Source of the DNA: an uncultured Ignavibacteria bacterium
GTDB taxonomy: Bacteria > Bacteroidota > Ignavibacteria > Kapaibacteriales > Kapaibacteriaceae
Length of the DNA stretch: 64,000 bases
Assembly (NCBI GenBank): GCA_937870915.1
Contig: CALMZQ010000221.1
Location: 999 to 64,998 of the forward strand
Direction of reading: 5' to 3'
A program made the position numbers and the translations under genes. This document shows positions 4,868 to 53,926 of the stretch, piece after piece; position 1 is the stretch's first letter, and each line of letters opens with the position of its first letter. The notes under the pieces are model-generated. The model worked only from the letters and a program-made list of their open reading frames with translations. It had not been told where the DNA came from and did not search any database.

Positions 4868-5890
4868 ATGACGCTCATCGACCAAATATCTGCTCTCCGC
4901 TCGGAGATCGAACACGAGATCCCCACGATCGATTCAGCGGATGCTGCTGAACGCTTCCGGCTAAAGCACCTTGTGAAGAAGGGGACCATTCAATCCTGCG
5001 TTGAAGGTCTTCGAATGGTTCCGCGCGAGGAGAAGCCCCTTGTTGGAAAAGCACTCAATGAATTGCGTGCACTTGCCGAAGGAGCATTTGCCCATGCTCA
5101 AGAACAGTTCGGAAAACGTTCTTCAACTCCGCATCTCGATCTTACACTTCCTCCTCGTGGGCAACGCCGTGGAGCAGTACATCCTATCACGCAAACTGTT
5201 GACAAACTCGTCAGCATCTTCTCGTCCATGGGGTTCGAAGTTGCTGAGGGGCCGGATGTTGAAGACGACACGCATAACTTCGGTAAGCTGAATTTTGCTG
5301 CCGACCATCCTGCTCGCGATATGCAGGATACCTTCTTCATCGACGATGAGGCTCGGGCAGATCTTCTCCTGCGTACACACACATCGAGTGTACAGGTACG
5401 TGTTATGGAGAACATGAAACCACCAATTCGCTGCATCATGCCGGGTAGGGTCTATCGTAATGAGGCGGTGAGTGCACGATCGCTGGCAGAGTTCCACCAG
5501 ATTGAAGGACTGTATATCGATAAGGGTGTGAGCATGGCCGATCTTAAGGGTACGATCATGGCCTTTGCCCGTCGGTTCTACGATGAAAACGCTGAGTTCC
5601 GTTTCCGCACCTCCTACTTCCCATTCACTGAACCGAGTTGCGAGATCGACATGTCATGTTTCCTCTGTAAGGGAGACGGGTGTCGCATTTGTAAACATTC
5701 CGGATGGTTGGAGATCTGCGGTGCCGGTATGGTCCATCCCAATGTTCTCTCGGCATGCGGAATCGATCCAAATGAATATTCAGGCTTTGCCTTTGGCTTT
5801 GGTGTTGAGAGAGTTGTGTTGATGCTAACGGGGATCGATGATATTCGACTCCTGTATGATAATGACATTCGTGTCCTATCGCAGTTCTGA
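4868..5890 (+). CDS. pheS: Phenylalanine--tRNA ligase alpha subunit
   Basis: HPARDMQDTF, LLRTHTSSVQ, EFHQIEG, SYFPFTEPS, WLEICGAGMVHP, GFAFGFGVER. Confidence 0.98.
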   Translation: MTLIDQISALRSEIEHEIPTIDSADAAERFRLKHLVKKGTIQSCVEGLRMVPREEKPLVGKALNELRALAEGAFAHAQEQFGKRSSTPHLDLTLPPRGQRRGAVHPITQTVDKLVSIFSSMGFEVAEGPDVEDDTHNFGKLNFAADHPARDMQDTFFIDDEARADLLLRTHTSSVQVRVMENMKPPIRCIMPGRVYRNEAVSARSLAEFHQIEGLYIDKGVSMADLKGTIMAFARRFYDENAEFRFRTSYFPFTEPSCEIDMSCFLCKGDGCRICKHSGWLEICGAGMVHPNVLSACGIDPNEYSGFAFGFGVERVVLMLTGIDDIRLLYDNDIRVLSQF

Positions 5891-38826: not shown

Positions 38827-41800
38827 TCATTGAGTACTGACCCTTACGTTTTCCTCAACTCCTATCTCGCGTGTATCTGTACCACCGGCATAGGAGAGAT
38901 GTCCATGATATCCTCCGATGACATTCGTTAGCACACGTACGTCTTCTACCATCACTCCTCGCCAGTGAGCGGTTCCATGCAAAGTGCCCTTTACAACAAG
39001 TGATGCATTACGAAGATCAGTACGGAAGAGATCGCGGATCTCCGGACGTACTACACACTGAAGAAAGCCTGTCTCATCTTCGATAGTCACAAAGAGCATA
39101 CCGTGTGCTGTTGCGGGCGCTTGACGTAATATGACGATCCCTGCGGTTGTAACGCGGAGTCCAGGTGTTACGGCCAAACGTTTGATCACTTCAATCGGAC
39201 GTACTTCAAGATCAGTAAGCCCCCTTCGATAGAGCGTCATAGGATGCAACCTCGCTGCTCCATGGGTGATGTAGTCATATGCAAGTCGTTCCTGTGCACG
39301 CAACTCGGGAAGTAGTGGTATGTCCTCTTCATGAAGCAATGGAGAGTGTATCAGTGGTGTGGGATTACCTGATGCTCGTCGTTTGACAACACCCACCATC
39401 CACATAGCTCTACGTGCATCGGCTTCCCAGGGCTCCATAGCACCAGCGAGTGCAAGTGCATCAAGAGCATCACGTGGCACGTCAGGTAGGCGAACTACAA
39501 TGTCCTCGATGCTGGTAAATGGTGCGCGAGAACGCTCCCAGACGATCATTCGTGCTACATGTTCACTTACATGTGAAACACTGGTAAGGGGCTTGCGGAT
39601 TGCCGTTGTTCCGTCGGGCATGGTTTCGAGTGCATAGCGCATACCGGAGTAGATCATGTTGGGAAGTAGAACGTTCACGCCACAACGGCGTGATTCTTCC
39701 TCCAAGGTCATAAGGTTATACATACCCGGACGATGTTGCATGAAGGCCGCCATGTATGCGGCTGCATGATGAGTTTTAAGCCATGCACTCTGGTAGACGA
39801 TCTTGGCAAATGCAGCAGCATGAGATCTACAGAAGCCATACCCTACAAAGTGCGAGACCTTTTCATAGACATTCTCTGCGCTGATACGGTCTACACCACG
39901 CAACATCGCTCCTTGAATGAATCGCTCTCTCATAGCCTCCATGAGGACACGGTCGCGATTCTTAGATACCAGTGCACGAAAGTCATCGGCTTCATCAAGA
40001 GGCATACCGGCAAACTTGTGAGCAATCTCCAGTACCTGTTCTTGAAAGAGGACAATGCCTAGAGTGTCCTTCAGTATGGGTTCTAGGTCCGGGTGGAGGT
40101 AGGTGATAGGTTGTATGCCTTTACGTCGTGCGATGTACGGATGTACCATTCCGCCTTGGAGCGGACCCGGACGGAACAGTGCTACTTCCGTCACAAGGTC
40201 GTCAAAAGATTCCGGTTGATGTTTCGCTAACAGGTGCATTTGACCCTGAGACTCTATTTGAAACACGCCTAATGTGCGACCGCTGCGAATAAGGTCAAAT
40301 GTGGCGGGGTCATCTAAAGGAAGTTCATCAACATCGAGTGTCTCGCCGGTATGCTGCATGAAAAGTTCAATGGTCTCGCTTATGCAGGCTAACATCCTGA
40401 GTCCTAGCACATCGAATTTCACAAGCCCCATTGCCTCAACATCATCTTTGTCGAATTGAACAACGGCAACACCATTGGCCGAGCGTTGTACCGGTGTGAG
40501 ATCCGTAAGTGGACGGGAAGAGAGGATCATGCCTCCGGAATGAAGGCCAAGATGACGTGGATGATCAAGAAGCAGATGAACAGCACGCATGAGGACATCG
40601 AGCAGGGGGATATCTCCGCATACAGCTGCGAGATCTGCACGATACTCCGTCACATCCTTGTTTGTCCACGACGGTACACATTTCGATAGTTTGTTCACAG
40701 TCTCCATTGGCCAACCAAGCGCCTTTGCAGCATCACGTACGGCCATACGAGCACGGTACATGATCAGCGTGGCTGTCATGGCTGTCCTGTTCGTTCCAAA
40801 TCGTTCTTCCATCCACGCAATCACTTCATCCCGTCTGTCGCTATCAAAGTCAACATCGATATCTGGTGTACCCTTTCGCCCCCTATGAAGAAATCGTTCA
40901 AAGAGGAGGTGATGTTTGATGGGGCATACGCCGGTGATACCAAGGAGGTAGGCTACGATTGAGTTGGCTGCAGAGCCACGCCCGGAACATCGGATGCCGC
41001 GACGTTTTGACTCGTCGACTACTTCCTTCACCACAAGAAAGAAGTCCGACAGTTGTAGATCGCCTATCACACGCAGCTCATGTTCAAGCAACGTTCTGGC
41101 CTTCTCTTCACGTCCGGTGTATCGTAGTGGAAATGTTATCTCACACGCATTTCGTAGCACTTCATGAGCAACCTCCCCGGGCTTCAATTGAGCTGAAGGG
41201 GGCGTAATGTGCTCCGGAATTATGTTGAATGAACATTGTTGAATGATATCACGAACATGCTCGAATGCCTCTGGCCAAGGAAGGAGCGAACGCAATTCAT
41301 CTTCGCTCCGTAGACAATGCCTGTCATTGACTGGACGTTGAGGATGGGGCTCATGGATCGTGATGCCATGGCGTATGCACGTCATTAGGTCATGCGTTGC
41401 ATATCTATCGCGGACAGCATACCTAACATCCTGAGCGATCACACATGGAAGCGAATGCACCTTAGCCAGTTCTACGATTTGTGCTGCACGGCGCCTAGCC
41501 CATGGCCTTCCATCGTGTCCAATTCCAACATACGTCAGCTTCTTGGGGAGTTTCTGAAGTACTTCTTCCACCACTACACGTTCAGCCGAAAGCCCGTGCA
41601 GAATGAGAATACACCGATTAAGTATTGATAGCCTGTTATAGATCTCGCAATCATCTTCAGCGCGAAGCACAGTTACAAGCTCACAGATCTCTGCGTATCC
41701 TTTCTGATCCTTAGCGAGTACTGTTACTACTGTGCCGTTACACTCCAGATCCGTTCCAATGATCGGCTGTAAACCGTACTCAATACATGCCTGCTGAAGT

Positions 41801-41943
41801 CGTACCGCTGCAAACACCCCCAATGTGTCGGTTAGAGCCAATGCCACATGGCCAAGTCGTACAGATTCTACTACATACTCTTCCGGAGACGAAGCACCGT
41901 CTAGAAAGGAGAAATGTGAACGGGTGTGGAGGGAAGCAAACAT
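38827..41943 (-). CDS. dnaE2: Error-prone DNA polymerase III alpha subunit DnaE2 (ImuC)
   Basis: PHP start H..SHFSFLDGASSP, GRGSAANS, FERF, catalytic PDIDVDF, PRHLGLHSGG, KFDVLGL, GVFQIES, YGFCRSHAAAFA, RQAP.TA.G.LFVTIEDETG; start set to the ATG at 41943. Confidence 0.93.
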   Translation of the reverse strand: MFASLHTRSHFSFLDGASSPEEYVVESVRLGHVALALTDTLGVFAAVRLQQACIEYGLQPIIGTDLECNGTVVTVLAKDQKGYAEICELVTVLRAEDDCEIYNRLSILNRCILILHGLSAERVVVEEVLQKLPKKLTYVGIGHDGRPWARRRAAQIVELAKVHSLPCVIAQDVRYAVRDRYATHDLMTCIRHGITIHEPHPQRPVNDRHCLRSEDELRSLLPWPEAFEHVRDIIQQCSFNIIPEHITPPSAQLKPGEVAHEVLRNACEITFPLRYTGREEKARTLLEHELRVIGDLQLSDFFLVVKEVVDESKRRGIRCSGRGSAANSIVAYLLGITGVCPIKHHLLFERFLHRGRKGTPDIDVDFDSDRRDEVIAWMEERFGTNRTAMTATLIMYRARMAVRDAAKALGWPMETVNKLSKCVPSWTNKDVTEYRADLAAVCGDIPLLDVLMRAVHLLLDHPRHLGLHSGGMILSSRPLTDLTPVQRSANGVAVVQFDKDDVEAMGLVKFDVLGLRMLACISETIELFMQHTGETLDVDELPLDDPATFDLIRSGRTLGVFQIESQGQMHLLAKHQPESFDDLVTEVALFRPGPLQGGMVHPYIARRKGIQPITYLHPDLEPILKDTLGIVLFQEQVLEIAHKFAGMPLDEADDFRALVSKNRDRVLMEAMRERFIQGAMLRGVDRISAENVYEKVSHFVGYGFCRSHAAAFAKIVYQSAWLKTHHAAAYMAAFMQHRPGMYNLMTLEEESRRCGVNVLLPNMIYSGMRYALETMPDGTTAIRKPLTSVSHVSEHVARMIVWERSRAPFTSIEDIVVRLPDVPRDALDALALAGAMEPWEADARRAMWMVGVVKRRASGNPTPLIHSPLLHEEDIPLLPELRAQERLAYDYITHGAARLHPMTLYRRGLTDLEVRPIEVIKRLAVTPGLRVTTAGIVILRQAPATAHGMLFVTIEDETGFLQCVVRPEIRDLFRTDLRNASLVVKGTLHGTAHWRGVMVEDVRVLTNVIGGYHGHLSYAGGTDTREIGVEENVRVSTQ

Positions 41944-41944
41944 G

Positions 41945-42124
41945 GAACAGCGAACATTAACAGCGAACGCAGAACAGCGAACAGCGAACCTTAGTGAATA
42001 GGGGAAACGTAGAAGAAATATACAAAATGTACATCCTTCATTCTCTACGCAATTCGCTGTTCTGGATTCGCTGTTCGCTGTTAACATTCTCTATTCGCTA
42101 TTCGCTATTCTCTATTCGCTATTC
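41945..42124. repeat. Two inverted arrays of heptamer repeats (GAACAGC versus TTCGCTG/TTCGCTA) flanking a ~60-bp spacer
   Basis: 41945-41989 GAACAGCGAACATTAACAGCGAACGCAGAACAGCGAACAGCGAAC; 42052-42124 ATTCGCTGTTCTGGATTCGCTGTTCGCTGTTAACATTCTCTATTCGCTATTCGCTATTCTCTATTCGCTATTC. Confidence 0.85.
42017..42031. promoter_or_regulatory. Candidate SOS-like operator upstream of dnaE2 (TACA-N3-TGTA)
   Basis: AATATACAAAATGTA, identical to 48334-48348; extends to the near-palindrome ATATACAAAATGTACAT. Confidence 0.6.
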
Positions 42125-43026
42125 TTCATCCACGTCCGTTCCAACACAGAAGTAGCGATGTAGTCAACTTTCAGCCCATTATTTGTTACCATTCTGTTCG
42201 TTGTGCTGAAAGCTCTCATGTATCCGCGGTTTACATATCGCTCCATAGTTGCATGAGAGATTGATATAGTGCCGTACGCAGGGATACGTTTCATCGTTAC
42301 GGCCATATAGGCTATCTGATCGTTGCCGGTTCCTGAAAGTGAATCCACACGAACTGTTCGAAAAAGCGTATCAAGCTTCTCGTTCATAACAACGGTCTTC
42401 TCTGGGCCGAATGTATGGCCGATATTCTGTATGGCTGAGCGAAGAGATAACGTATCAGTATAGGACTTGCCAATCATGGTCATAGTCTCGCCCCTTGCAA
42501 ATGGAGCTAACAATGCAAATTCTGTAGGAAAGGTCATTACAAGTGACGTTTGTGCCTCTGAGTCCATTGTTCTGGAGATCACACTTCCTAGGCTATTACC
42601 ATCGTCCGTGGATGACATCATGTCATGACTAGCCATCATTATGCGTCCATAAGGATCTAACGTGGCTTCATACTGAGGGGAAGCCCATGCCAATCGAACG
42701 CCCGTGATGCTCATTTCACCCTTCTTAGAGAAGAGGAGGGTGTCAGATTTCAGCAGGTCTCGCATGGTTCTCATTTTTACAGCTACACGAACGTTGCCCA
42801 CTTCGTCGCGGTCTATGATCTCCAACTGGTATACAGCAGGCACACATACACCTTTGTCATTCATCACATGCTGGTCAATTCGCAGGTGATAGGAGAGTAT
42901 CCTACCAATAGCAAGGTCGCTCGTACCTTGATCTTGCACCATGCCCGGTCCCGATTGTTCATTCTGTCCACTTGCAACCTGGTAGATCAAGAGAGCAAGG
43001 ACAGAGACACACAGGAAGTTCTTCAT
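42112..43026 (-). CDS. Secreted hypothetical protein, tandem paralog 1 of 4
   Basis: Signal peptide (ASG-Q), GAGGTG RBS, shared motif GR.L.Y.LR.DQ.V...GVC.PA.Y....DRD..GN.RV. Confidence 0.8.
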   Translation of the reverse strand: MKNFLCVSVLALLIYQVASGQNEQSGPGMVQDQGTSDLAIGRILSYHLRIDQHVMNDKGVCVPAVYQLEIIDRDEVGNVRVAVKMRTMRDLLKSDTLLFSKKGEMSITGVRLAWASPQYEATLDPYGRIMMASHDMMSSTDDGNSLGSVISRTMDSEAQTSLVMTFPTEFALLAPFARGETMTMIGKSYTDTLSLRSAIQNIGHTFGPEKTVVMNEKLDTLFRTVRVDSLSGTGNDQIAYMAVTMKRIPAYGTISISHATMERYVNRGYMRAFSTTNRMVTNNGLKVDYIATSVLERTWMKNSE

Positions 43027-43149
43027 CTCGCCACCTCTTTGTAATTCGGACAAGACAGTCCGAATATATGACGACGCCTTATAGATAGCAAGGAAAAGTT
43101 TTCATACGTGAAAAAACGTATACTAGAGGTAGAATTAGTGAGTAGGGGG

Positions 43150-44085
43150 CTACTTTTTCACTGTACTCGAATCCAATATCGAGGTAGCGATGTATTCAGG
43201 AATCAAGCCGGGTATGCCTTCCTTACGGCTAGTAGTTTCAAAGGTCTTCATATACCCCTTTTTTACATACCGTTGCATAATGGACGTGGCAATGGAATGT
43301 ACACCATAGACCGGGTGGCGCTCCATCCGAACCGTCATATGAGCAACCTCATCGTCACCACTACCAGAAAGTGAGTCTATGGTGACTGCTCGAATGATTG
43401 TATCCTGGTTCAAGCGTGGTTGTTTCTCTGATTCTGACCCAGTTGTATGACCGATCTTTTGGATCGTCGATGTGATCAAAAGGGTGTCTACATATGCCGT
43501 ACCAATAATGAACGAATTTGATTCGCGTAGATATGGGGCCAAAAGCGCATACTCCGTAGGTATGGTAGAGAGTACTTGCGTCATTGCATCGGAGTCTGTT
43601 ATGCGCGGCAGAACTGTCCCCATGGTGATCGTTTCTGGAGTTGTAGACTCGAACTGTGCGTTAGTAAACATAACCCTGCCATACGCGTCGAGGGTGGCTT
43701 CGTATCTAGGAATTGTAAATGCAAGGCGTACACCAATGATCTTCAATTCTCTAGACTTTGTCATAAAGAGCGTATCGGATGATATCAATTCACCAGCCGA
43801 TCTCATTTGAACAGATACGCGTGAATTGCCAGCCTCATCTCGGTCAAGAATTGTAATCGTATACGTGGCAGGTATACATACCCCTCTACCGTTCACAACG
43901 TGCTGATCAACTCTGAGCCGGTAGGTCAGAACCCTGCCAGGCACCAATTCCGTGTATGCTTTGTCATTGAGTATCCCTGGCCCCACACGAACATCCGGAC
44001 CATTGTCTCCATTCTGACCTCGACTCACATTGGCAGAAAGAATGAAGACGCACAAAACAAATGGTAAAGAGACGGTCTTGATCAT
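43150..44085 (-). CDS. Secreted hypothetical protein, tandem paralog 2 of 4
   Basis: Signal peptide (SRG-Q), same shared motif, C-terminal PEYIATSILD. Confidence 0.8.
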   Translation of the reverse strand: MIKTVSLPFVLCVFILSANVSRGQNGDNGPDVRVGPGILNDKAYTELVPGRVLTYRLRVDQHVVNGRGVCIPATYTITILDRDEAGNSRVSVQMRSAGELISSDTLFMTKSRELKIIGVRLAFTIPRYEATLDAYGRVMFTNAQFESTTPETITMGTVLPRITDSDAMTQVLSTIPTEYALLAPYLRESNSFIIGTAYVDTLLITSTIQKIGHTTGSESEKQPRLNQDTIIRAVTIDSLSGSGDDEVAHMTVRMERHPVYGVHSIATSIMQRYVKKGYMKTFETTSRKEGIPGLIPEYIATSILDSSTVKK

Positions 44086-44207
44086 GGCATCACCTCAGAG
44101 TAGATGGTTTGACGACGTCAGATCAGCTATCACGAACTTCTACACAAGAACAGTAGTGTGGTAATGTTCGGGTGTACGAGTGCCGTAAGTAATATAGCGT
44201 ATGAAAC

Positions 44208-45140
44208 TCACCTATCCATCGTACTCGTATCGAGAATGGAGGTTGCGATGTATTCAGGAATGGGGCTGGTAGATCCCACCTTCCTACTGGTGGTAACAAA
44301 GGACTTCATATAGCCCTTTTTTATGTAGCGTTCCATAACCGAGATCGCAACCGAAGGCATTCCGTAAACAGGGTAACGCTCCATACGAACGGTCATATGT
44401 GCGAGCTCATCGTTACCACTTCCAGAGACTGAATCGATCGTCACCGTTCGAATGATAGTATCCTGAGCCTCTTTCGGCTGGGGCCTTGTCTCGGTTCCTA
44501 TAGTTCTGCCAATCTTTTGGATTGCAGAGGTAAATAGTATTGTGTCTTTATACGGTCTTCCTACGAGAATGGAGGTTGCCCCTTGTAGATACGGTGCCAT
44601 GAGGGCGTATTCTGTTGGGATAGTGGAAAGGACGTTTGCCATTGCATCCGAGTCCGTTATCCGAGACTCAACGTTACCCATCGTACTTGATTCTTGGGAC
44701 ATTGCGTCTAATTGTTCATTTGTATATAGAACCCTGCCATTTACGTCCAAGGTTGCTTCATACTTGGGAATTGCAAAAGCAAGGCGCACCCCAACGATCT
44801 TCATCACCGTTGACTTTGAGAGAAAGATCGTGTCAGACGCAATGAGCTCGCCTGCGGATCGCATTTCAACTGAAACACGTGAGTTGCCAGCAGCATCTCT
44901 ATCGAGTATTGCTATCGAATATATAGCTGGTATACATACGCCTCTTCCATGTACAACATGTTGGTCAACCCTGAGTTTATACGTTAGGACTCTACCAGGA
45001 GTAAGCTCTGTGTATGCCTTGTCGTTGAGAACTTCAGGCCCTACCTGAATAATCGGTGTATCGCTGGTGTCTTGCCCCTTACTCACGCCAATTGAGATAA
45101 AGATCAAACAGAAATGGACCGTCAAGGCAAGTAGTTTCAT
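44208..45140 (-). CDS. Secreted hypothetical protein, tandem paralog 3 of 4
   Basis: Signal peptide (SKG-Q), same shared motif, most similar to paralog 2. Confidence 0.8.
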   Translation of the reverse strand: MKLLALTVHFCLIFISIGVSKGQDTSDTPIIQVGPEVLNDKAYTELTPGRVLTYKLRVDQHVVHGRGVCIPAIYSIAILDRDAAGNSRVSVEMRSAGELIASDTIFLSKSTVMKIVGVRLAFAIPKYEATLDVNGRVLYTNEQLDAMSQESSTMGNVESRITDSDAMANVLSTIPTEYALMAPYLQGATSILVGRPYKDTILFTSAIQKIGRTIGTETRPQPKEAQDTIIRTVTIDSVSGSGNDELAHMTVRMERYPVYGMPSVAISVMERYIKKGYMKSFVTTSRKVGSTSPIPEYIATSILDTSTMDR

Positions 45141-45277
45141 TACGTTTACTCGAGTCAGATGCCGACAGTAAGCAAAACTACTTACTTCCGTTCTACGCGA
45201 GAAGGTACTTTATAGTTTCCTCCAATTCTATTTCTGGTGAAATACTTTAAAAAGAACTCTCTTTGAGCCGTTTAAGG

Positions 45278-46207
45278 CTATTTGGTGTCTTCTAAGGAAT
45301 TGTTAATCCAGGAACGTTCAAGTACGGTGGTTGCCACGTAGTCCAGCCGTAAACCTTTATTCGTGACCAAGTTGTTTGTTGTTTTGAATGACTTCATATA
45401 GCCGCGGCTTACGTAGCGTTCCATGGTTGCTTGGACGATAGATTCTGCTCCGTGTGAGGAAGATCGATTCATAACAACCTTCATATACGCGATCTGGTCA
45501 GGCCCTGCACCTGAGAGCGAGTCGACACGAACTTTCCTGATCACTATATCGTGTATCTCCTTTACGCTTGAAGTGCTATCGGGGCCATATGTATGACCGA
45601 TTGCTTGCATGCTCGATCGAATGGTGAGAGTATCAACATATTCTTTACCAACCTCTGTCATAAATGCCCCGTGTTGATAGGGGGCTAACAATGCTAACTC
45701 AGTAGGGAATGTTACTGCAACTGAAGAAACGGCCTCATAGTCAGTTGTGCGGGAAAGTACTGACCCCATAGTTCTTGCGGCTTCAGTGTGTCCGGGTAGT
45801 TCGTCACGTGCACGTAACAGACGGCCGAATTTGTCGAGTGTAGCTTCGTATTTCGGTGATATCCACGCCATTCGAAAACCCACGATCTTCAGTTCTCCAC
45901 TTTGCGAAGCAAAGAGAGTATCAGTAGTTAAGAGCTCTCTCATTGTTCGTACTTGTACCCCAACACGAACGTTACCTGCGGCATCGCGATCTAATACCTC
46001 TAACTGATAGACTGCCGGGATACATACACCTTTATCTTTAACCACACTTTGGTCTACCCGCAAATGATACGTAAGAACTCTGCCGGGTACGAGTTCTGAT
46101 TCAGCGTTCATCTTGCTGCTGTGCGATTCCATTCGCTCAGTCTGTGCGCTCGCCTCTACTGTCAAGAACAAAGAGACGCAATGAAGAAGTACGAGAGCTT
46201 TCATCAT
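45278..46207 (-). CDS. Secreted hypothetical protein, tandem paralog 4 of 4
   Basis: Signal peptide (ASA-Q), same shared motif, C-terminal DYVATTVLERSW like paralog 1. Confidence 0.8.
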   Translation of the reverse strand: MMKALVLLHCVSLFLTVEASAQTERMESHSSKMNAESELVPGRVLTYHLRVDQSVVKDKGVCIPAVYQLEVLDRDAAGNVRVGVQVRTMRELLTTDTLFASQSGELKIVGFRMAWISPKYEATLDKFGRLLRARDELPGHTEAARTMGSVLSRTTDYEAVSSVAVTFPTELALLAPYQHGAFMTEVGKEYVDTLTIRSSMQAIGHTYGPDSTSSVKEIHDIVIRKVRVDSLSGAGPDQIAYMKVVMNRSSSHGAESIVQATMERYVSRGYMKSFKTTNNLVTNKGLRLDYVATTVLERSWINNSLEDTK

Positions 46208-46278
46208 GTCACCTCTGTTTGGTGCGGAGAATTACGTACGAAGATGTAGCATTGCCGAATTATTACCAAATATTAATT

Positions 46279-46515
46279 TCAATCGAATATTCTCGATAAA
46301 ATCCAGGAGTTCTGGCCGCTTTTATAGACCTCCATTACACCGGAAGTGGTCTCGAGGAGGATATAGTCACGCATTTCATCAATACCCCACCAAGGGCCCC
46401 TACTCGACCATGCATCGAGCACTCGTTCCACGTCGTAAGCACCCCCACGCCAGCATACAACATATGGTGTATTGTTGCGGCACCCAACATCTATCGGTTC
46501 TAGCAGGAGTTTCAT
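46279..46515 (-). CDS. Small protein of the mutagenesis cassette, DUF6504-like / ImuB-C-like
   Basis: WRGGAYDVERVLDAW...GPWW....RDY...W.LSRIFD; ATGA-coupled to the imuB-like gene. Confidence 0.7.
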   Translation of the reverse strand: MKLLLEPIDVGCRNNTPYVVCWRGGAYDVERVLDAWSSRGPWWGIDEMRDYILLETTSGVMEVYKSGQNSWILSRIFD

Positions 46516-47468
46516 TCATTCCCTCTGCGTTCTTGGGAATAGCCTGTAATCCGTGCATATGACTCGGGAACTATGGACCATGGATCTAGGATCTCGATAC
46601 GCTTCATCACGGAGGAATAGCGTGGAATCATAGCTAAGGAGACATCTAGAGCTGTTTTCCGCTCGATGAACAGCTGTGTTTGAATAACACTTGGTTGGGT
46701 AAGTGAAGCCAGCCGTAGCCGCAGACCCCACCAGAGTCGTACTGGGCCTTGTAGATCGCGCAGTAAGGCGCGTGCATGGACCAAGATGGTATCATATGTT
46801 GTGGCACCCTGACGTAGTACTCTACTGCGCTGCGCGCACACGTCATCGGCTCTATCCAGTACTGCAAGCTCAATACGCCAGCAGAGTTTTGGTACAAGTT
46901 CTGATATCACACGAGCACAACATTCTCGCAAGGCTGAGTCTAGGACACCGGGCTCACATTGCACATCATCGAATCGCTCTGAAGAGACGATGGCAGGGGG
47001 CGGAACATAGAGTGGAAGGGGAGGAAATTCTTGTACAAGGAAGGTGTGGAGTTTACTGCCGGCCGTTCCAAACTGAACACGGAGATGACGTTCCTCCAGC
47101 TGCTGCAGGTCTCCTATGGTGCGGATACCAAAGAGCCGTAAGCGTTCTGCGTCGCGTTCATCTAAAGAGAGCTCAGGTATTCGCAGGAGCACGGAGCTAG
47201 GTACATCCTTCGCATTTGCGTAGGCGTCCAAACGTCCTGCCGTTCCGTTGAGTGCACAGAGAAATGCACTTATTCTATCGGGTGCCAACGCAGATAATGC
47301 CTTGGTTCTACGCACGAGCTCACGAAGTCCATTCAGATCATCAGTGCCGGCAAATAGCCTACCATGCCCGGACACTACAAGAAGTGGGGTACAAGCATGT
47401 ACCCGTTCAACAACGGCATCCCATCGGGCGGAGGAGAGAGCCCCTTCCATAACAACGCAGAGAATCAT
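46512..47468 (-). CDS. Y-family polymerase-like accessory protein (ImuB/ImuY-like, probably catalytically inactive)
   Basis: ERLRLFGIRTIGDL HhH/thumb motif, L..QFG..G, little-finger-like region, Q.QLF clamp-binding-like motif; lacks the N-terminal acidic catalytic motif. Confidence 0.75.
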   Translation of the reverse strand: MILCVVMEGALSSARWDAVVERVHACTPLLVVSGHGRLFAGTDDLNGLRELVRRTKALSALAPDRISAFLCALNGTAGRLDAYANAKDVPSSVLLRIPELSLDERDAERLRLFGIRTIGDLQQLEERHLRVQFGTAGSKLHTFLVQEFPPLPLYVPPPAIVSSERFDDVQCEPGVLDSALRECCARVISELVPKLCWRIELAVLDRADDVCAQRSRVLRQGATTYDTILVHARALLRDLQGPVRLWWGLRLRLASLTQPSVIQTQLFIERKTALDVSLAMIPRYSSVMKRIEILDPWSIVPESYARITGYSQERRGNE

Positions 47469-47527
47469 CTGCGATTCTACGAAATGTCAAATGAATTGAC
47501 AAAGCAGATGTGGGCTGGGGGATAAGT

Positions 47528-48298
47528 TTAGAGTTTCTTGATGCAACTGCGAACCACACCAACTATCGTAAAGTCCATGTCGGCTGTGATGGCAATGTCC
47601 TTATACCGTCTGTTTTCAGCCCGCAGAACTGGACGCCCTTCGGCCTTGATATATCGTTTAACGGTGAGTTCGCCGTAGACCTTTGCAATGACGATCTGAC
47701 CAGAACGTGGCTGGATGGCACAATCAACGATAAGAGTGTCTCCATCACTGATTCCTGCGTCAGTCATTGAATCTCCCACCACCCGAATAAAATAGGTGCT
47801 TTCGGGATGTTCAAGAAGCATATCGGCCAGATCAATCTCACGCTCGATCGTGTCATCGGAAGCAGTAGGGAGGCCGGCACTAACTCCCAATGACAACATC
47901 GGAATACGTGGCCCGCGAGCCCCCTTCACTGAACGAGCAGGTGCTACAACAAGGGGCGATTGTGACTTGAGTTCGGCAATTACAGAACGAATGGCTTGCA
48001 CTTGCTCTTCGAGACGGTCTAAAGCGGTTTTTGCCTCGCTGGGAATCGAGTGATGATCAGGGCCTGATGTTCCAAGTGTTGGAGAGCCGGTTCCGGTCAA
48101 GAGCCAACCGGAAGAAATCCCGTAGCGTTTTTCGAGGATGGCCAATACATCCTGGGGTACAGATGTGCGACCAGATTCCCACGAATACACGGTAGGTACC
48201 TTTACCTGCATATGCTTTGCATAGTCAGCCACAGACATCTGAAGGACAGATTCGCGGATCTGACGATGACGGGTGCCGAGCTGGATCTTGGTTTGCAT
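47528..48298 (-). CDS. XRE-HTH plus peptidase S24 (LexA/UmuD-like) self-cleaving repressor
   Basis: HTH (YA..MQV...TVYSWESGRTSVP..WLLTG), VSAG cleavage site, VVGDSM Ser, TVKR Lys; start set to the ATG at 48298. Confidence 0.88.
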   Translation of the reverse strand: MQTKIQLGTRHRQIRESVLQMSVADYAKHMQVKVPTVYSWESGRTSVPQDVLAILEKRYGISSGWLLTGTGSPTLGTSGPDHHSIPSEAKTALDRLEEQVQAIRSVIAELKSQSPLVVAPARSVKGARGPRIPMLSLGVSAGLPTASDDTIEREIDLADMLLEHPESTYFIRVVGDSMTDAGISDGDTLIVDCAIQPRSGQIVIAKVYGELTVKRYIKAEGRPVLRAENRRYKDIAITADMDFTIVGVVRSCIKKL

Positions 48299-48333
48299 AG
48301 GAATACCGTATTCAATTGTGGAAACATGTGGAC

Positions 48334-48348
48334 AATATACAAAATGTA
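48334..48348. promoter_or_regulatory. Candidate auto-operator upstream of the HTH-S24 repressor
   Basis: AATATACAAAATGTA, 35 nt upstream of the ATG, identical to the box upstream of dnaE2. Confidence 0.6.
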
Positions 48349-48379
48349 AAGGTATTTGCATTTATTATGGAGTAGGGGG

Positions 48380-49900
48380 CTATGTGGTGGTGGACTTCTC
48401 GACTGTTTTCAATAGGGACTCGAACATCACTTCGAAGGGGATGAGCTCATTTGTTTCAGAGGGCATGGGATCATGCGAGGAGGCAACAAGCTCCTCGTAA
48501 ATGTCCTTTGTGTTCTTGCGGATCTCGGATGGAATAAACGAGTGTTTGGGAAAACTTTGAATGAGGCGTAAGAATATCCGGACCCTATTGAAGTGCTTTT
48601 CTTTGAGATAGCGCGAGGAATAGACTCGCAGATAGTCGATCCGTTTTTCAGCCGTATCGTAGTCACCATTGATCATGAGGTAGAATACGTGAGACACTAT
48701 GATCAATACGTTATAGACCTTCTTTGACTTTGATTCTTCCGGTAGGGAATTCAGATACGTTGAAAGGCGAAACGTCTTTGCGCGACTCTGTTGCGGTGCA
48801 TACAGACCGAGCTGTTCAGCGAGCAAAAGGTAGGCGCCGTAGATGATCCAGCGCTCCCTTGTATTCTCGGAGAGCATGTTGTACTTGCGATGGGTTGTTG
48901 CCCTCGTGTAGAGGAGTTCAGCCTTTTCATAATCCTGGATATTGATAGCAGCTACAAAGGCAAGGTCAGATGCAAAGTACCAGTTGTTACCTGCTACAGT
49001 GAATGAATCAATACACTTGTCTGAAAGGGTGAAGGCCTCACTATAGCGTCGTAGGTAGAGTGCCGCCGTCATTTTCTGAAGCATGAACTCACCGTGACGT
49101 GCTCGTTGAGACAGATGAGGAACCGAATTCAGGTATTCAATGGCACTGTCACATTCATTGATAACCCCGGAAAAATCCTCAACAAAATCGAAGTAGTTCA
49201 CCGCGGCGCGGAAACTGCTCAACCGCAGGCCATGCGTATTGTGTTCCTTACGCATCGTCTCAACCTTTACCATGGCGTCTTTATGTAGGTCGATCAAATA
49301 GGACCGTTTGCGACTCGTTACCGTCATCTCCATTTTTAAATGGTCGAGCAAAAAGTCTGCATCATATTCACATTTCAATGCGCTCATATGTCGTACCGCT
49401 TCTCGATGATGATGCAGAAACGTGGTGCGCTTGTTCCAAACGGCAGCAGATTCTCGTAACATCACTGCAAGCGAGACGCAGATATCGGTGAACTGATACT
49501 TTTGAGCAATGGTCAGAGTCTTCAACGCTATCGCATAACCAGCACGACGAGATGCAAATCGCATCAAGGTCTGAGCTGCGATCTGGTTGCGCATACATTT
49601 GTAATAGTAGCTCAGGTATTCCGAGTGCTCTGGCTGTTTTACCTGTAAAAAGAGCACGGAGTGCATCAATCGCTCGTACGTACGCGACTTTAGCGTTCGG
49701 TAACGCTGGTCGCTAGATCCCGTTCCATAAAGATCAAGTGCGGCTTCATCATCGTTGGCATATTGATCACTGGCAATACCGATTAGATACCGCCCTGCCA
49801 GTGATGAGGCTGCCTCATCACCCTCGACGAGCTCAGGAAAGACCTTGGCTTTGTCGGATTTCGTTGTAACAATCCGCAATATTTCTTTAAGAATTTCCAT
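48380..49900 (-). CDS. Large alpha-helical hypothetical protein (possible N-terminal HTH-like region plus TPR-like repeats)
   Basis: 506-aa ORF, no signal peptide or TM; helical-repeat patterns (LYLRRYSEAF, INIQDYEKAE, MINGDYDTAE); DDEAALDLYG....RYRTLKSR segment; fold call is an inference. Confidence 0.65.
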   Translation of the reverse strand: MEILKEILRIVTTKSDKAKVFPELVEGDEAASSLAGRYLIGIASDQYANDDEAALDLYGTGSSDQRYRTLKSRTYERLMHSVLFLQVKQPEHSEYLSYYYKCMRNQIAAQTLMRFASRRAGYAIALKTLTIAQKYQFTDICVSLAVMLRESAAVWNKRTTFLHHHREAVRHMSALKCEYDADFLLDHLKMEMTVTSRKRSYLIDLHKDAMVKVETMRKEHNTHGLRLSSFRAAVNYFDFVEDFSGVINECDSAIEYLNSVPHLSQRARHGEFMLQKMTAALYLRRYSEAFTLSDKCIDSFTVAGNNWYFASDLAFVAAINIQDYEKAELLYTRATTHRKYNMLSENTRERWIIYGAYLLLAEQLGLYAPQQSRAKTFRLSTYLNSLPEESKSKKVYNVLIIVSHVFYLMINGDYDTAEKRIDYLRVYSSRYLKEKHFNRVRIFLRLIQSFPKHSFIPSEIRKNTKDIYEELVASSHDPMPSETNELIPFEVMFESLLKTVEKSTTT

Positions 49901-50290
49901 GGCAAAAACACCTAAAGTGCCTTATAGTAGGGACTTGCATTGCAACTCCAATATACAGTATTGCCAGTAATGCCCTGTAACAATTTCAATTTATTTGTAA
50001 CAGAGTATCAATTCTATTCATACCATTTTCGCTCTACAGGCAACGGACCGGGGTTATACCCGTGCCGTGGTGCCTCGCGTCGCACAATGCCCGGCAAATG
50101 CCGGTGTTGTGATCGTACATATGCATTGATCTGTCCAATAACATGGACGGTTCATCTGTATCTGGTCAAACATAACCTATCCGTTGTGGTGGGGTAGGTT
50201 TGGGTTGGTTGATGCAGAGATATATGGAGTCACAAAAATGAAGATCAACTACAAACATCATTTGTTCAAACCAATACAAGGGTTTCCGCC

Positions 50291-50476
50291 ATGGAACTAC
50301 TCATCGCAATCATGTGCTTCTTCGGACTCGTTAGCTACGAGGATGCCGGTATTACGCAACCTGAGGCCAATCTTCTGTTGCAGAACAATCAGTCGACGGT
50401 CCAGTATTACTACGATAATCCGGACTCACTCGCCGTATTGCCACAACGCGTCAACATTGATAGAGCAGAAGATTAA
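50291..50476 (+). CDS. Small peptide L1 (61 aa), hydrophobic N-terminus, ends IDRAED
   Basis: MELLIAIMCFFGLVSYEDAGITQPEANLLLQNNQSTVQYYYDNPDSLAVLPQRVNIDRAED; paralog at 50745. Confidence 0.85.
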   Translation: MELLIAIMCFFGLVSYEDAGITQPEANLLLQNNQSTVQYYYDNPDSLAVLPQRVNIDRAED

Positions 50477-50528
50477 TGTCTGTCTGAACTAACAAATCAC
50501 TTCAAAAACAATTTCAAGCGAGAACATC

Positions 50529-50582
50529 ATGCGTACAACACGCCAACACCCATACTCGATCGATCGCGGCGAAGAAAACTAA
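50529..50582 (+). CDS. Micropeptide S1 (17 aa) MRTTRQHPYSIDRGEEN
   Basis: ATG...TAA; differs from S2 only at silent positions; GAGAACATC-ATG start context. Confidence 0.8.
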   Translation: MRTTRQHPYSIDRGEEN

Positions 50583-50611
50583 TTCAAACAACTCCTTAAC
50601 ACGAGAACATC

Positions 50612-50665
50612 ATGCGCACAACACGTCAACACCCATACTCGATCGATCGCGGCGAAGAGAACTGA
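50612..50665 (+). CDS. Micropeptide S2 (17 aa) MRTTRQHPYSIDRGEEN
   Basis: ATG...TGA; peptide identical to S1 with 4 nucleotide differences, all silent. Confidence 0.8.
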   Translation: MRTTRQHPYSIDRGEEN

Positions 50666-50744
50666 GCTGCAAAGAGTCCTCGAGTCTTTGTCGAAGTCAA
50701 GAACAACCACAAATCAAACAACACAAAAATCGAAAGTCAACACC

Positions 50745-50933
50745 ATGGAACTCCTCATCGCAATCATGTGCTTTTTCGGAATCGTCAGCTATGAAGATGC
50801 TGGTATCAGCCAGACCGACGCGAGATACCTCCTTCAAAGCAATCAGACAACAGTTCAGTACTACTACCAGAACCCAGATGAACTAACAGGCCTCGTACCA
50901 CAACGCGCACAGATCGACCGTGCTGAAGACTGA
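50745..50933 (+). CDS. Small peptide L2 (62 aa), paralog of L1, ends IDRAED
   Basis: MELLIAIMCFFGIVSYEDAGISQTDARYLLQSNQTTVQYYYQNPDELTGLVPQRAQIDRAED; 46 identities to L1 by manual alignment. Confidence 0.85.
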   Translation: MELLIAIMCFFGIVSYEDAGISQTDARYLLQSNQTTVQYYYQNPDELTGLVPQRAQIDRAED

Positions 50934-50936
50934 AGT

Positions 50937-50973
50937 TAGAGTGCTAGTGTGCTAGAATGCTAGAATGCTAGAG
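50937..50973 (+). repeat. Octamer tandem repeat (TAGAATGC consensus, ~4.5 copies)
   Basis: TAGAGTGC TAGTGTGC TAGAATGC TAGAATGC TAGAG. Confidence 0.8.
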
Positions 50974-51034
50974 AAGGCGAAGCGGTCACATGAAACTCAA
51001 CACGAACAACAACAAGAACACAAAAGGAAACATC

Positions 51035-51088
51035 ATGAAAACCAACCGTCAACACCCGTACTCGATCGATCGCGGCGAAGAGAACTAA
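51035..51088 (+). CDS. Micropeptide S3 (17 aa) MKTNRQHPYSIDRGEEN
   Basis: AAAGGAAACATC-ATG; last 13 aa identical to S1/S2; an upstream in-frame ATG at 50990 would give a 32-aa form. Confidence 0.8.
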   Translation: MKTNRQHPYSIDRGEEN

Positions 51089-51139: not shown

Positions 51140-51496
51140 ATGTTGCAAGCAATGCCCGTTCAGAACTGCATGCACTTCCTGATGCCGATCAGCTTGGATG
51201 ATTGGAAGTCGTATGACGTCCCCGGTGTAGTGGGAATCCTCCGCAAAGGCGAATCAGGGCAATATGAGCTAGTCGATGCCTTTGATTGTGACCAGATCCC
51301 AGGAGCCAACGAGCTCACGCTTCATGAGAAGTATGGTCAATGGTTGAATGCAGCAGGCAGCCAAGAGCTCATGCGTTTCGATGTCTTCCTCATGCCTCAG
51401 GCAAACAAGACACGCAGAAATGATGTGATTGCACTTATTGAGCGCAGCTGTGGCATTATTCTGCCTTCTAGATCAGCCTACGTGAATGCCGCATAG
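51140..51496 (+). CDS. Hypothetical protein (118 aa), possible degenerate GIY-YIG-fold
   Basis: AAGGAG RBS; PGVVGIL...YELVD...HEKYGQWL..AGS...FLMP....RR...LI pattern resembles small GIY-YIG-like proteins but the Tyr/Gly motifs are substituted. Confidence 0.55.
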   Translation: MLQAMPVQNCMHFLMPISLDDWKSYDVPGVVGILRKGESGQYELVDAFDCDQIPGANELTLHEKYGQWLNAAGSQELMRFDVFLMPQANKTRRNDVIALIERSCGIILPSRSAYVNAA

Positions 51497-51503
51497 CGTA
51501 AAA

Positions 51504-52154
51504 CTATTTACGTGTGATCTTGACAAGTTTTGAAGTAGTAGCACCGAATGGTGGCCCGTCCGTAGTAGTTCCAGCCCACAGCTGAGATTCATCTGTGATG
51601 ATGCCAAGAGACGGGCTTACAAACGATAGAGATTTCGTAACAACCACACCAACGCCATCGGTTAACGTTGGTACTGACAATGCCTGGAAAACGGCGCAGC
51701 GAATAGAACCCGCAGGCGTCGTTAAGGTGGTGTCCGCATGTACTGTTGTTACAACCTTCTCATAGATCTGCAGAGTTGAACCTGAAGGATTCCTTAGTGT
51801 ATCCAAAACGTGGATCACTGTATCTCCTACTGTTGTAGGGAATCGGGCGATCTTCACTGCCGTCTCTGTTCCTCGATAGGTTTCAAGATAGCCGCCCCTC
51901 ATCCTATACGTGTAGTCTTCGCGTAAGAGTACTTGAGCTCCCGGAGCTCCTGAAACTCCAATAACCAATACCGTTGTAACGGTGGTACTGTCTGGTTGCG
52001 TAGTTGACGTAGATTCGAAATCCAATTTATCTCCTGCCTTAAGGTCAAAGGTGGAGAGTGTGAATGTAGGTTCTTGAGGAACTGGATCTGTGGTAGATGC
52101 GCACGATGAAATCAAGAGCGCAGTGCAGATCAAGGAAATGAATGTCTTTATCAT
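51504..52154 (-). CDS. Hypothetical lipoprotein
   Basis: LISS-C lipobox; Thr-rich beta region with TTPAGSI.C and PSLGII motifs. Confidence 0.7.
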   Translation of the reverse strand: MIKTFISLICTALLISSCASTTDPVPQEPTFTLSTFDLKAGDKLDFESTSTTQPDSTTVTTVLVIGVSGAPGAQVLLREDYTYRMRGGYLETYRGTETAVKIARFPTTVGDTVIHVLDTLRNPSGSTLQIYEKVVTTVHADTTLTTPAGSIRCAVFQALSVPTLTDGVGVVVTKSLSFVSPSLGIITDESQLWAGTTTDGPPFGATTSKLVKITRK

Positions 52155-53926
52155 GGGATCACCAAGGTTAGGCGTGATACAACGGCACTGTTAGATTTGA
52201 CCGTTAGCACATAGATGCCAGGGGAAACATTGTTTATCAGTTCAACTGGTATAATTGTCCGACCAGCATCAATACGATGCATGCCCAAATCGCTTGTTGA
52301 GCCACTCATGTCAACAAGAGCCAAGGATACCATTTCGGCATTTGGTGCTGTCACCTCGAACACGCTTGCGTTTGTGACAGGATGAGGTGTTACATGAAGT
52401 TCCCAACCGCTTTCTTTGAACTCCGCAACACTCGTTACAGTTAATGTGAATGCAGCTGGTGTAGACCACCCGCCATTACCACAAGAATTCTTAGCACGCA
52501 CCTCCCAAGTGAAACTGCCGGCACCAATGGACGTGACCGAAACGTTTGTTGTTGTTCCCGAGACGAGTGAATCTTCGAATACCACTGCAAATGGTGACGT
52601 GGAATTTTTCACTCTCAGATGGTATTGGGTTGCATCGGTTGCAGCAGACCAGGAGAATCGTACAGAGCCCGTATTGTCTGCGGATTGGGCGCCTTTCGGT
52701 GATGTTGCCGTGGTGGAGGTAGGGAGCTTCCCACCTGTTGTGAACGTGAAGGGGGCCGACCATTGACCGTTACCAACGCTGTTCACGCCACGCACGCGCC
52801 AATAGTGTTTGGTGTTGCACAGTGCAAGGATAACGCTGGCACTCGTTCCGCTTGGTGTTCCTGTGGCCACGATACTATTAGCTGCAAAGTTCTGCGTAGT
52901 TGCAACCTGATATTCATATGAATCAGCCATGGCGGCAGATGCCCATTCAAGTGTAACGTCTAATGGTCTACCAGTTGCGCTATTGGCTGGCAAGCGAAGC
53001 GTAACATTGCCCGGACCTTGTGACGCCGGAATGAAGTCAACCTTCAGATTCTCACCGTTGAAATCCACGGTCTTTACTACTGGTGCAGACAAGCCCCCTT
53101 CAGAAGCCGTAACTACAACAGATCCGCTCCCAGTGAAAGGGATTGCATAACCACCGGAAGTGCTTGTAACAGCATAATAGGTTCCGCGATTGGGTTTAAC
53201 GGAGACGCCTCCAAGGCCTTCACCAATATCATAGAAGCCGTTAGAGTTTTTGTCATTGTACACAACTCCGGTAATGTAACGCACACTGCGAAGACCAAAG
53301 TCTTGGGTGATGACGTATGGACCAACGTGACTGGTCTGAAGCCCTTGATTATTCTTGATGATCCCGATACCGATCTCTGTAAACAGATAGTTCGAAATGT
53401 TCATGATGTTGGTGCGGTGTCCAAGCTGTATTTGGTTCTCTTCTCCCCAGTCTACGTTAAGTCCACAGTGACCATACCATACAGACTCGCTATAAGCCGC
53501 AACGTTTTCACCATAGGTCCCCATCGATGCGTAGCTCACCTTTGCGTACCGATCTCCAAGATCGTCACCATTGCTACTAGTGTGGCCTTGGAAATTGTTG
53601 TCATCCATATCCTTTGAATGTGCCGCAGCTGCGGTCATCAGTGCCGGATGAAATGCAAGAGGCGGACGTTGAGCATACGTTGTAAATGCTTGCTTCGTAG
53701 CGCTCTTGTTGATCTGCCAGAAGGAGTAGGCTTGTTGTACACTGGCATCATCAGTATCCATCAAGCGAATGCCTTCCTCAGTTGGATTGGCACGAGCTCT
53801 GTTGATCATTTCCAACATCAACTGTTCTTCAGGTGATGGATCGCCATGACTATACGTCTGCGTTGGTTGAGCTGATGCGCGCATCGAAATGAGTGCTACA
53901 AAAAGCACGATAAACACCTTGGTCAT
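52151..53926 (-). CDS. CAP/SCP-domain secreted protein with FN3-like repeats and T9SS C-terminal domain
   Basis: ASA-Q signal, LEMINRAR, AHSKDM, GENVA, GHRTNIM, YWRVRG/WEVRA FN3 motifs, P.PV...GIYVL CTD. Confidence 0.85.
   Translation of the reverse strand: MTKVFIVLFVALISMRASAQPTQTYSHGDPSPEEQLMLEMINRARANPTEEGIRLMDTDDASVQQAYSFWQINKSATKQAFTTYAQRPPLAFHPALMTAAAAHSKDMDDNNFQGHTSSNGDDLGDRYAKVSYASMGTYGENVAAYSESVWYGHCGLNVDWGEENQIQLGHRTNIMNISNYLFTEIGIGIIKNNQGLQTSHVGPYVITQDFGLRSVRYITGVVYNDKNSNGFYDIGEGLGGVSVKPNRGTYYAVTSTSGGYAIPFTGSGSVVVTASEGGLSAPVVKTVDFNGENLKVDFIPASQGPGNVTLRLPANSATGRPLDVTLEWASAAMADSYEYQVATTQNFAANSIVATGTPSGTSASVILALCNTKHYWRVRGVNSVGNGQWSAPFTFTTGGKLPTSTTATSPKGAQSADNTGSVRFSWSAATDATQYHLRVKNSTSPFAVVFEDSLVSGTTTNVSVTSIGAGSFTWEVRAKNSCGNGGWSTPAAFTLTVTSVAEFKESGWELHVTPHPVTNASVFEVTAPNAEMVSLALVDMSGSTSDLGMHRIDAGRTIIPVELINNVSPGIYVLTVKSNSAVVSRLTLVIP

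Follow-up and report, generated by a model that had tools for sequence, protein, structure and literature searches.

Five mini-genes and the selection acting on them

We analyzed a stretch of 64,000 nucleotides (hereafter the window) from an uncultured Ignavibacteria bacterium of the family Kapaibacteriaceae (GenBank assembly GCA_937870915.1, contig CALMZQ010000221.1, positions 999 to 64,998 of the forward strand), and in particular an array of five very small genes at positions 50291-51088 of the window. These genes fall into a long (L) and a short (S) class, and their constant neighbor, here called c0, is a divergent gene encoding a protein with a predicted tetratricopeptide repeat (TPR)-like fold; the coordinates of all features are collected in Table 1. 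All five open reading frames (ORFs) were located on the plus strand in the order and with the sizes (in amino acids) that an initial annotation of this DNA had given, namely L1(61)-S1(17)-S2(17)-L2(62)-S3(17). Its further description of the array also proved accurate: S1 and S2 differ at four nucleotides, all silent (CGT/CGC, CGC/CGT, GAA/GAG, TAA/TGA), AACATC precedes the ATG in three of three S genes, the spacers are A/C-rich (A 33-43 %, C 18-31 %) and unstructured (50477-50760 has a folding z of +0.66, and 147 of 200 shuffles fold equally well or better), and the C-terminal motif is the conserved part common to both classes. A six-frame scan of the whole assembly (3,324,208 bases in 233 contigs, 51 % G+C) found ID[RK][AGS]E[DE] with a stop codon close behind in these five ORFs only; contig C207 has the sole other match to the motif, which is internal to a long frame. 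S3 has a possible 32-residue upstream extension (ATG at 50990), and because this extension is not kept in the nearest relative we take the 17-residue frame to be the conserved ORF. The smallest members of the cassette comprise only 14-18 codons, and the S genes are missed by gene callers. We rejected a structured RNA as an explanation of the array, on the basis of the folding z value and of an Rfam search that at E<=1 returned nothing within the array and one sub-threshold match outside it.

Table 1. The array, its neighbors and the intergenic element, in window coordinates
Feature	Position	Strand	Description
L1	50291..50476	+	61-aa precursor-like small protein; apolar N-terminus, central NQ..V/I and D/N-P motifs, C-terminus IDRAED (family alignments)
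S1	50529..50582	+	17-aa mini-gene: M-x-x-x and one 13-residue unit R-x-x-P-Y-x-I-D-R-G-E-E-N
S2	50612..50665	+	17-aa mini-gene; peptide identical to S1
L2	50745..50933	+	62-aa paralog of L1
S3	51035..51088	+	17-aa mini-gene
118-aa orphan protein	51140..51496	+	downstream of array; AAGGAG-like site before ATG; family-specific c0 partner
c0	48380..49900	-	506-aa all-helical TPR-like protein (predicted); constant partner of peptide genes, putative receptor or regulator
LexA-like repressor	47528..48361	-	HTH_3 and Peptidase_S24; 18 nt downstream of c0, same strand
ImuB-like gene	46512..47468	-	inactive Y-family type; weak IMS_HHH_1 match; L027 ortholog matches IMS family
DnaE2-type error-prone polymerase	38827..42087	-	last cassette gene; L027 ortholog matches DNA_pol3_alpha, PHP and finger domain
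Direct-repeat element	49976..50001	+	TGTAACAA, then TTTGTAAC about 10 nt on; divergent intergenic region; candidate promoter/operator

The five ORFs are real genes, and selection acts on the peptides. We collected 40 distinct 39-nt S units from related genomes with a search pattern that left the Ile codon free, and this codon, directly before the D-R-G-E block, varies 0/0/17 times at codon positions 1/2/3; the corresponding values are 3/2/24 for the Pro codon and 2/2/6 for the Tyr codon. The ratio of nonsynonymous to synonymous substitution (dN/dS, Nei-Gojobori) of the L genes is 0.06-0.19 in 9 of 11 ortholog or paralog pairs, with dS unsaturated, and 0.06-0.07 for L1 against its orthologs, indicating purifying selection on the L genes across copies. 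In the closest species, whose c0 protein is 92 % identical, DNA identity amounts to 79-94 % in the five ORFs and 38-63 % in the five spacers. The starts of the S genes are conserved as well: an AAGGA-like purine-rich site at -12 to -8 is common to 37 distinct S starts, and adenine occupies position -3 in 70 %, -6 in 76 %, -12 in 73 % and -13 in 59 % of them. Adenines at these four positions favor initiation in Flavobacterium johnsoniae, according to PMC6847099. The suggestion in the initial annotation that selection preserves the peptides rather than a DNA repeat is thus borne out by the third-position variation of the S units, the low dN/dS of the L genes and the higher conservation of ORFs than of spacers. 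Non-coding DNA repeats with chance open frames would fit the shortness of the units and the fact that gene callers miss the S genes; however, substitutions restricted to third positions, low dN/dS, ORFs conserved above spacers, conserved start contexts and a reversed-pattern control with 0 matches against 16 of 254 genomes make such an origin scarcely conceivable.

A cis-acting role was also considered, in which the S ORFs would be leader or arrest peptides (upstream ORFs) that tune the gene for the 118-residue protein, with the conserved C-terminus acting inside the ribosome. The S genes do lie in the 5' part of the transcript of that gene, and conserved C-termini are a property of arrest peptides. 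Nevertheless, the motif is repeated internally in the S ORFs of relatives that hold several units, L carries the same motif as a protein of 61 residues, and at one locus with a c0 paralog 26 % identical (L049), where an L-like gene with a hybrid L/S tail is accompanied by one S gene, the peptide genes end at a hairpin and T-run with no 118-aa gene after them. In the array region itself the region folds like its shuffles, no terminator or antiterminator structure was found, and a terminator and promoter scan returned 0 terminator-like sites and nothing exceeding shuffles. We therefore regard a leader-peptide function as highly improbable.

Association of the peptide genes with c0 in the order and the phylum

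The initial annotation proposed to test whether small ORFs ending in the motif co-locate with homologs of c0 in related genomes, and this is what we observed. A degenerate DNA pattern for DRGEEN and stop matched 16 of the 254 genomes of the order (its reversed control matched 0), and DRGENN and stop matched five further genomes, so that S units occur in a total of 21 of 254 genomes, all in one family. Of these 21 S-bearing loci, 19 have c0 within 1.5 kb, contig ends cutting the other two; the 118-aa gene is present at 16 of the 21. The pairing counts, here and below, take in close relatives that are not independent. The S unit comprises 13 residues, R-x-x-P-Y-x-I-D-R-G-E-[EN]-N, and single-unit genes consist of M-x-x-x and one such unit, while in one genus (g7) three or four units stand head to tail in one ORF (six loci, one of them truncated). 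When close loci were fetched by means of c0 alone, L and/or S were found in 8 of 18 (the window, L013, L015, L018, L019, L021, L023 and L027), and two others were cut by contig ends; the peptide genes are divergent from c0 in every case. At one of these loci (L015, in G016) a run of N around 4960-5400 interrupts the second L copy, and the copy number there is uncertain. The genome studied here has a second c0 copy, 44 % identical (locus L024, G000 contig C164:1757-4325), which keeps a divergent 118-aa gene and the TGTAAC element described below; the 691-nt spacer between its c0 and 118-aa genes holds no recognizable L or S.

The L class extends further than the S class. Distant c0 paralogs (23-28 % identity) from three other families of the order have a divergent upstream ORF of 68-73 residues at 13 of 23 loci, as judged by eye from ORF lists, two of the 13 being orthologs of each other, and these ORFs match the plan of L, with an apolar N-terminus, central N-Q..I and D/N-P, and then a hydrophobic stretch before the acidic end. 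When 301 genomes sampled evenly from the phylum were searched with the c0 profile, 16 matched at E<=1e-10, seven of them in other classes, and the c0 loci of Saprospirales and Chitinophagales have a small divergent ORF in 6 of 10 cases, again by visual judgment; a strict automatic filter tuned to the L proteins of Kapabacteria recovered 0 of the cases outside Kapabacteria. The ORFs of the other classes take three forms. The first has an apolar N-terminus followed by seven copies of a heptapeptide or four copies of a nonapeptide, the second consists of two adjacent ORFs at one Chitinophagales locus that have only their last 13 residues in common, and the third comprises single ORFs with a related hydrophobic-T-D-D-x-G end; an orthologous three-repeat form exists in a further Saprospirales metagenome-assembled genome (MAG). 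In the Chitinophagales/Saprospirales MAGs with the repeat forms (L104:4838-5041 and L103:10450-10623), the 4-7 tandem motifs of 7-9 residues after the apolar N-terminus contain D-P-x-G and the ORFs are divergent from the c0 homolog; a 145-aa ORF converges on the repeat ORF at both loci. Together, these observations show that c0 and a small precursor have been inherited and duplicated as a pair across the phylum; of the two peptide classes, L is both older and more widespread. In its sequence (hydrophobic residues, then D-R-x-E-[ED]) the S unit is similar to the tail of L, and S thus looks like that tail turned into a separate gene.

The N-terminus of L deserves particular attention. We measured its apolar run in 27 diverse L proteins: the length varies from 7 to 19 residues with a median of 13, and the median of the 19-residue Kyte-Doolittle window is 1.56. 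Lys or Arg precedes the run in 0 of the 27 and Asp or Glu stands there in 23, and over the remaining chain the net charge has a median of -5. Being short and without a preceding basic residue, the run does not qualify as a canonical Sec signal, nor as a clear membrane span. The L profile matched 36 clusters in a set of 5.8 billion proteins, all unnamed or "hypothetical", and L, the multi-unit S ORFs and the repeat precursors matched nothing above any cut-off in Pfam or in NCBIfam, including its precursor peptide models; L likewise has no match in PADLOC or PHROGs.

c0, the 118-residue protein and a putative ligand/receptor switch

Of 61 related genomes, 41 contain c0 homologs, and a single genome may hold as many as 16 copies. 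The protein belongs to no family in Pfam, NCBIfam, PADLOC or PHROGs, no PDB entry was matched by profile, and no enzyme domain was found. Its AlphaFold2 (AF2) model (pLDDT 89, pTM 0.82) is entirely helical and has a TPR-like solenoid fold, a resemblance at the level of the predicted fold only: Foldseek ranked MalT domain III and the peptide-binding TPR domains of LGN and kinesin light chain (KLC), all of them TPR/SUPR solenoids, highest at E of about 3e-3, and an Atlas structure search returned HTH and TPR clusters at TM 0.47-0.48. The strongest conservation lies within the N-terminal 100 residues. The typical job of the TPR fold is to hold short peptides. The genes downstream of c0 paralogs encode a CHAT protease, IgGFc_binding, CotH and LTD, or glycosyltransferase proteins, or the LexA/ImuB/DnaE2 set found here; such diversity would be expected if c0 is a regulator rather than a dedicated enzyme. 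The second c0 copy of the genome adjoins housekeeping genes. Elsewhere in the genome, 527-595-aa frames on G000 contigs C20, C107 and C118 have a weak match to sigma-70 region 4, at positions unrelated to c0.

The 118-residue protein, encoded directly behind the array, is equally unannotated. Its family comprises 70 clusters in the set of 5.8 billion proteins, all unnamed or "hypothetical", and a profile search of 1.84 billion proteins yielded only 11 representatives at E<=1e-3; no family was assigned by Pfam, NCBIfam, PADLOC or PHROGs. Asp, Arg and Cys residues are invariant. The AF2 model (pLDDT 83) has the order strand-strand-helix-helix-strand-helix and no fold match in the PDB, where the best hit (transthyretin, E 0.1) was treated as noise. 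Weak hints pointed to GIY-YIG nucleases: in BFVD a phage endonuclease ranked seventh (TMq 0.56, E 0.19) and GIY-YIG proteins ranked 43-44 (TMq 0.46-0.47), and an Atlas feature lead came from 13 % of one cluster. The catalytic Tyr residues of the GIY and YIG strands are not conserved, the two strands reading G-[IV]-[LF] and [YF]-x-[VL]-[VIL]-D in 12 of 12 aligned members.

We propose that the peptides and c0 form a ligand and TPR-receptor pair that would work like the RRNPP or Rgg-SHP cassettes without being a member of them, and that the five ORFs are, as their sequences predict, translated small-protein genes; for these two propositions jointly we estimate a probability of roughly 0.4. The tail appears to be the functional unit, since S reproduces the tail of L, single ORFs hold 3-7 tandem copies of a unit and the paralogous peptides at one Chitinophagales locus share only their last 13 residues. 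A ligand/receptor switch is the most economical reading because the tail is conserved and copied, the predicted fold of c0 suits peptides, no enzyme domain was found and the genes behind c0 vary. Binding, regulation, processing and export are what we infer from this pattern. According to our model, L (about 60 residues) would be the ancestral precursor, made of an apolar N-terminal helix and a tail in which D-R-x-E-[ED] comes after hydrophobic residues, and the helix may serve as a handle for membrane targeting or export, or as a second contact with c0. S would be a free-standing copy of the tail, a 13-residue unit after a 4-residue start, multiplied into separate mini-genes in the window and, in a sister genus, into ORFs of 3-4 tandem units, which would let the cell make much tail peptide. 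The TPR groove of c0 would bind the tail in the way that TPR receptors hold short or C-terminal peptides, and its occupancy would switch the effect of c0 on neighboring genes; in the window these targets may be its own operon (the LexA-like, ImuB-like and DnaE2 genes) and the divergent operon of the peptides and the 118-residue protein. The tail might be exported and serve as a population signal, or it might act within the producer, with S competing against or mimicking the tail of L; that the S genes are leaderless argues for at least part of the action lying inside the producing cell.

Peptide switches with TPR receptors are textbook biology of Gram-positive bacteria and their phages. The RRNPP(A) systems of Bacillota (Rap-Phr, NprR-NprX, PlcR-PapR, PrgX, Rgg-SHP and AimR-AimP) resemble the cassette in that a TPR-type cytoplasmic protein stands beside a tiny, often unannotated propeptide gene, the conserved part of the peptide is at the C-terminus, and each paralog family has its own peptide. 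In Rgg/SHP and PrgX/PrgQ, the receptor and peptide genes are also divergent, as they are here. Tandem pheromone copies within one propeptide are known for Rap-Phr, as stated in PMC11343458. Unlike these systems, however, c0 has no sequence or profile relation to the receptor families (none of 19 c0 family members scanned matches a known RRNPP receptor family), no helix-turn-helix (HTH) or phosphatase output domain was found in it, the host belongs to a different phylum and is diderm, S has no export signal and the N-terminus of L no basic n-region, and the 118-residue protein is an additional partner. Because homology and an output domain are missing, the phylum differs and the export signals are atypical or absent, we do not consider the cassette a member of RRNPP or Rgg-SHP. 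The initial annotation did not recognize a described system here, and our searches agree: no curated family matched, literature searches found nothing comparable for Bacteroidota, and the large surveys of RRNPP-type systems that we consulted cover Firmicutes only (PMC10075063). It had not mentioned the 118-residue partner, the S precursors with several units, the wider spread of the L family or the LexA-like/ImuB/DnaE2 operon downstream of c0.

Two other known arrangements share single features with the cassette. The TPR grooves of Hop, which reads EEVD tails, and of PEX5, which reads PTS1, recognize short extreme C-termini in eukaryotic chaperone and import systems, and the conserved acidic motif of S and L likewise stands at the very end of the chain; in contrast, the known ligand is the tail of a large protein and not the product of a dedicated mini-gene, and in multi-unit S an internal unit would present a C-terminus only after cleavage. 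AgrD-type precursors are small and reach the membrane through an apolar or amphipathic N-terminal helix in place of a Sec signal, and their C-terminal part is acidic. L is similarly small, with an apolar N-terminus that is not a canonical Sec signal and an acidic C-terminal part, but there is no AgrB-like protease or histidine-kinase receptor at the loci and no Cys for a thiolactone.

The repeat structure could also suggest precursors of ribosomally synthesized and post-translationally modified peptides (RiPPs), with L carrying a leader, S being leaderless or multi-core, and c0 and/or the 118-residue protein acting as an undescribed maturase or recognition protein. Multi-core precursors are typical of several RiPP classes, and both these and microcin C-type mini-genes are very short ORFs that gene callers miss. 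The cassette resembles them in its very short ORFs, in the 3-7 repeats of a short core within one precursor, in the leader-like conservation of the N-terminus of L and in the terminal Asn of S (40 of 40 units, although this residue is fixed by the search pattern), and the invariant Asp, Arg and Cys of the 118-residue protein might be read in the same sense. In contrast, the cassette contains no ThiF/MccB-like, ATP-grasp, YcaO, radical SAM or protease gene, Pfam and NCBIfam scans of the neighbors found no known maturase, protease, cyclase or transporter family in or beside the loci, and no MccB (ThiF/E1-like) adenylyltransferase occurs among the neighbors in the window and the related loci. Moreover, L ends in Asp, where microcin C has Asn, the cores lack a conserved pattern of Cys, Ser, Thr or Lys for the common cross-links, the NCBIfam precursor peptide models do not match, c0 is modeled as a plain TPR solenoid and the genes beside its paralogs are unrelated to each other. 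We therefore consider a RiPP pathway quite unlikely.

A number of observations weigh against the ligand/receptor switch that we prefer. The support for the c0 fold is modest, TPR being generic, the Foldseek E only about 3e-3 and the TM <=0.4. No output or DNA-binding domain was found in c0 by Pfam or by a search of its N-terminal profile against the PDB (best E 0.28), and a candidate sigma-region-4-like HTH at a T-L-K-S-R stretch had to be rejected, as the PF08281 model did not match and hhalign to the region-4 alignment of the genome itself gave a probability of 1.2 %. No peptidase, exporter or importer is conserved at the loci; S has no apolar segment and no export signal at all, and the apolar run of L is without the Lys/Arg n-region of Sec signals (0 of 27). 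About half of the c0 loci have no recognizable peptide gene, including the second c0 copy of the genome, and c0 and the 118-aa gene are also found together without peptides. The non-independence of the pairing counts and the visual scoring of the distant loci count on the same side.

The error-prone polymerase operon and what the cassette may mean

In the window, c0 stands at the head of a minus-strand mutagenesis cassette (38827-48361) without a recognizable imuA. The synteny c0 > LexA-like > ImuB-like > DnaE2 is found at nine loci (the window and eight others), and the peptide genes are divergent from this operon in the window and at some of the nine; elsewhere, peptide/c0 pairs occur without the operon. 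Non-canonical LexA proteins of the HTH_3 and S24 domain type are known in Bacteroidetes, as PMC8565304 reports. A DUF6504 gene lies between ImuB and DnaE2 in some relatives (L023), and in the window this interval holds four tandem paralogs of 304-311 residues with signal-like N-termini (42112-46207, minus strand); one of these was tested and had no Pfam match, and the closest relative (L013) has one copy there. On the other side, a 216-aa lipoprotein-like ORF with no family match and a 591-aa protein with CAP and fibronectin-III domains and a C-terminal sorting-like domain (51504-53926, minus strand) flank the cassette and are syntenic in close relatives only.

The divergent intergenic region contains a direct repeat of TGTAAC, which is kept between c0 and the peptide genes or the 118-aa gene at close related loci and is not conserved at distant c0 paralogs. 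TGTAAC followed 13-15 nt on by a second TGTAAC occurs at a handful of sites in the genome (49976-50001 and sites on G000 contigs C34, C206 and C210), with unrelated genes behind them. The LexA motifs given for Bacteroidetes in PMC8565304 are GGA-N5-TCC and CTAA-N5-TTAG; the element differs from both, and a genome scan found no SOS gene behind similar sites, so that we rejected it as a LexA box. It could be a promoter of an alternative sigma factor.

This neighborhood also bears on a different view of the cassette, in which L would be a small membrane-active SOS-type effector (like a division inhibitor or toxin), S a soluble decoy or antagonist of L, and c0, instead of a receptor, a co-regulated protein serving the ImuB/DnaE2 mutasome as scaffold. 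In Gram-positive bacteria, small membrane proteins encoded divergently from lexA are SOS division inhibitors, and the synteny at nine loci with a divergent peptide operon, the Kyte-Doolittle median of the L N-terminus and the absence of an imuA-like gene from the cassette would all be compatible with such a role. Peptide/c0 pairs are, however, also found far from lexA, imuB and dnaE2 (L015, L018, L019, L021, the distant paralogs and other classes), the intergenic element fits neither published motif and does not precede SOS genes here, and an apolar run with a median of 13 residues is short for a membrane span. Our data thus make this view rather improbable. The probability left over after the readings named here belongs to something else.

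Returning to the ligand/receptor switch, a far-reaching version of it is conceivable but, in our estimation, unlikely. The cassette would then be the first family of ribosomal-peptide cell-cell signaling in Bacteroidota, a diderm convergent counterpart of RRNPP/Rgg-SHP with a patchy distribution from Kapabacteria to Saprospirales and Chitinophagales, in which the error-prone polymerase operon (LexA-like, ImuB, DnaE2) would be under peptide control and the leaderless S would be a cell-autonomous mimic or competitor of exported L.

In conclusion, four unannotated families, c0, L, S and the 118-residue protein, constitute one conserved cassette under purifying selection. If c0 binds the peptides, they would be a new ligand/receptor family that is easily testable with synthetic 13-mers and soluble receptor, would offer a handle on gene regulation in uncultured Kapabacteria and might link peptide signals to mutagenic DNA synthesis. 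Even with another mechanism, the multi-unit precursors and the free-standing tail genes would be an unusual example of mini-genes arising from the end of a larger precursor.

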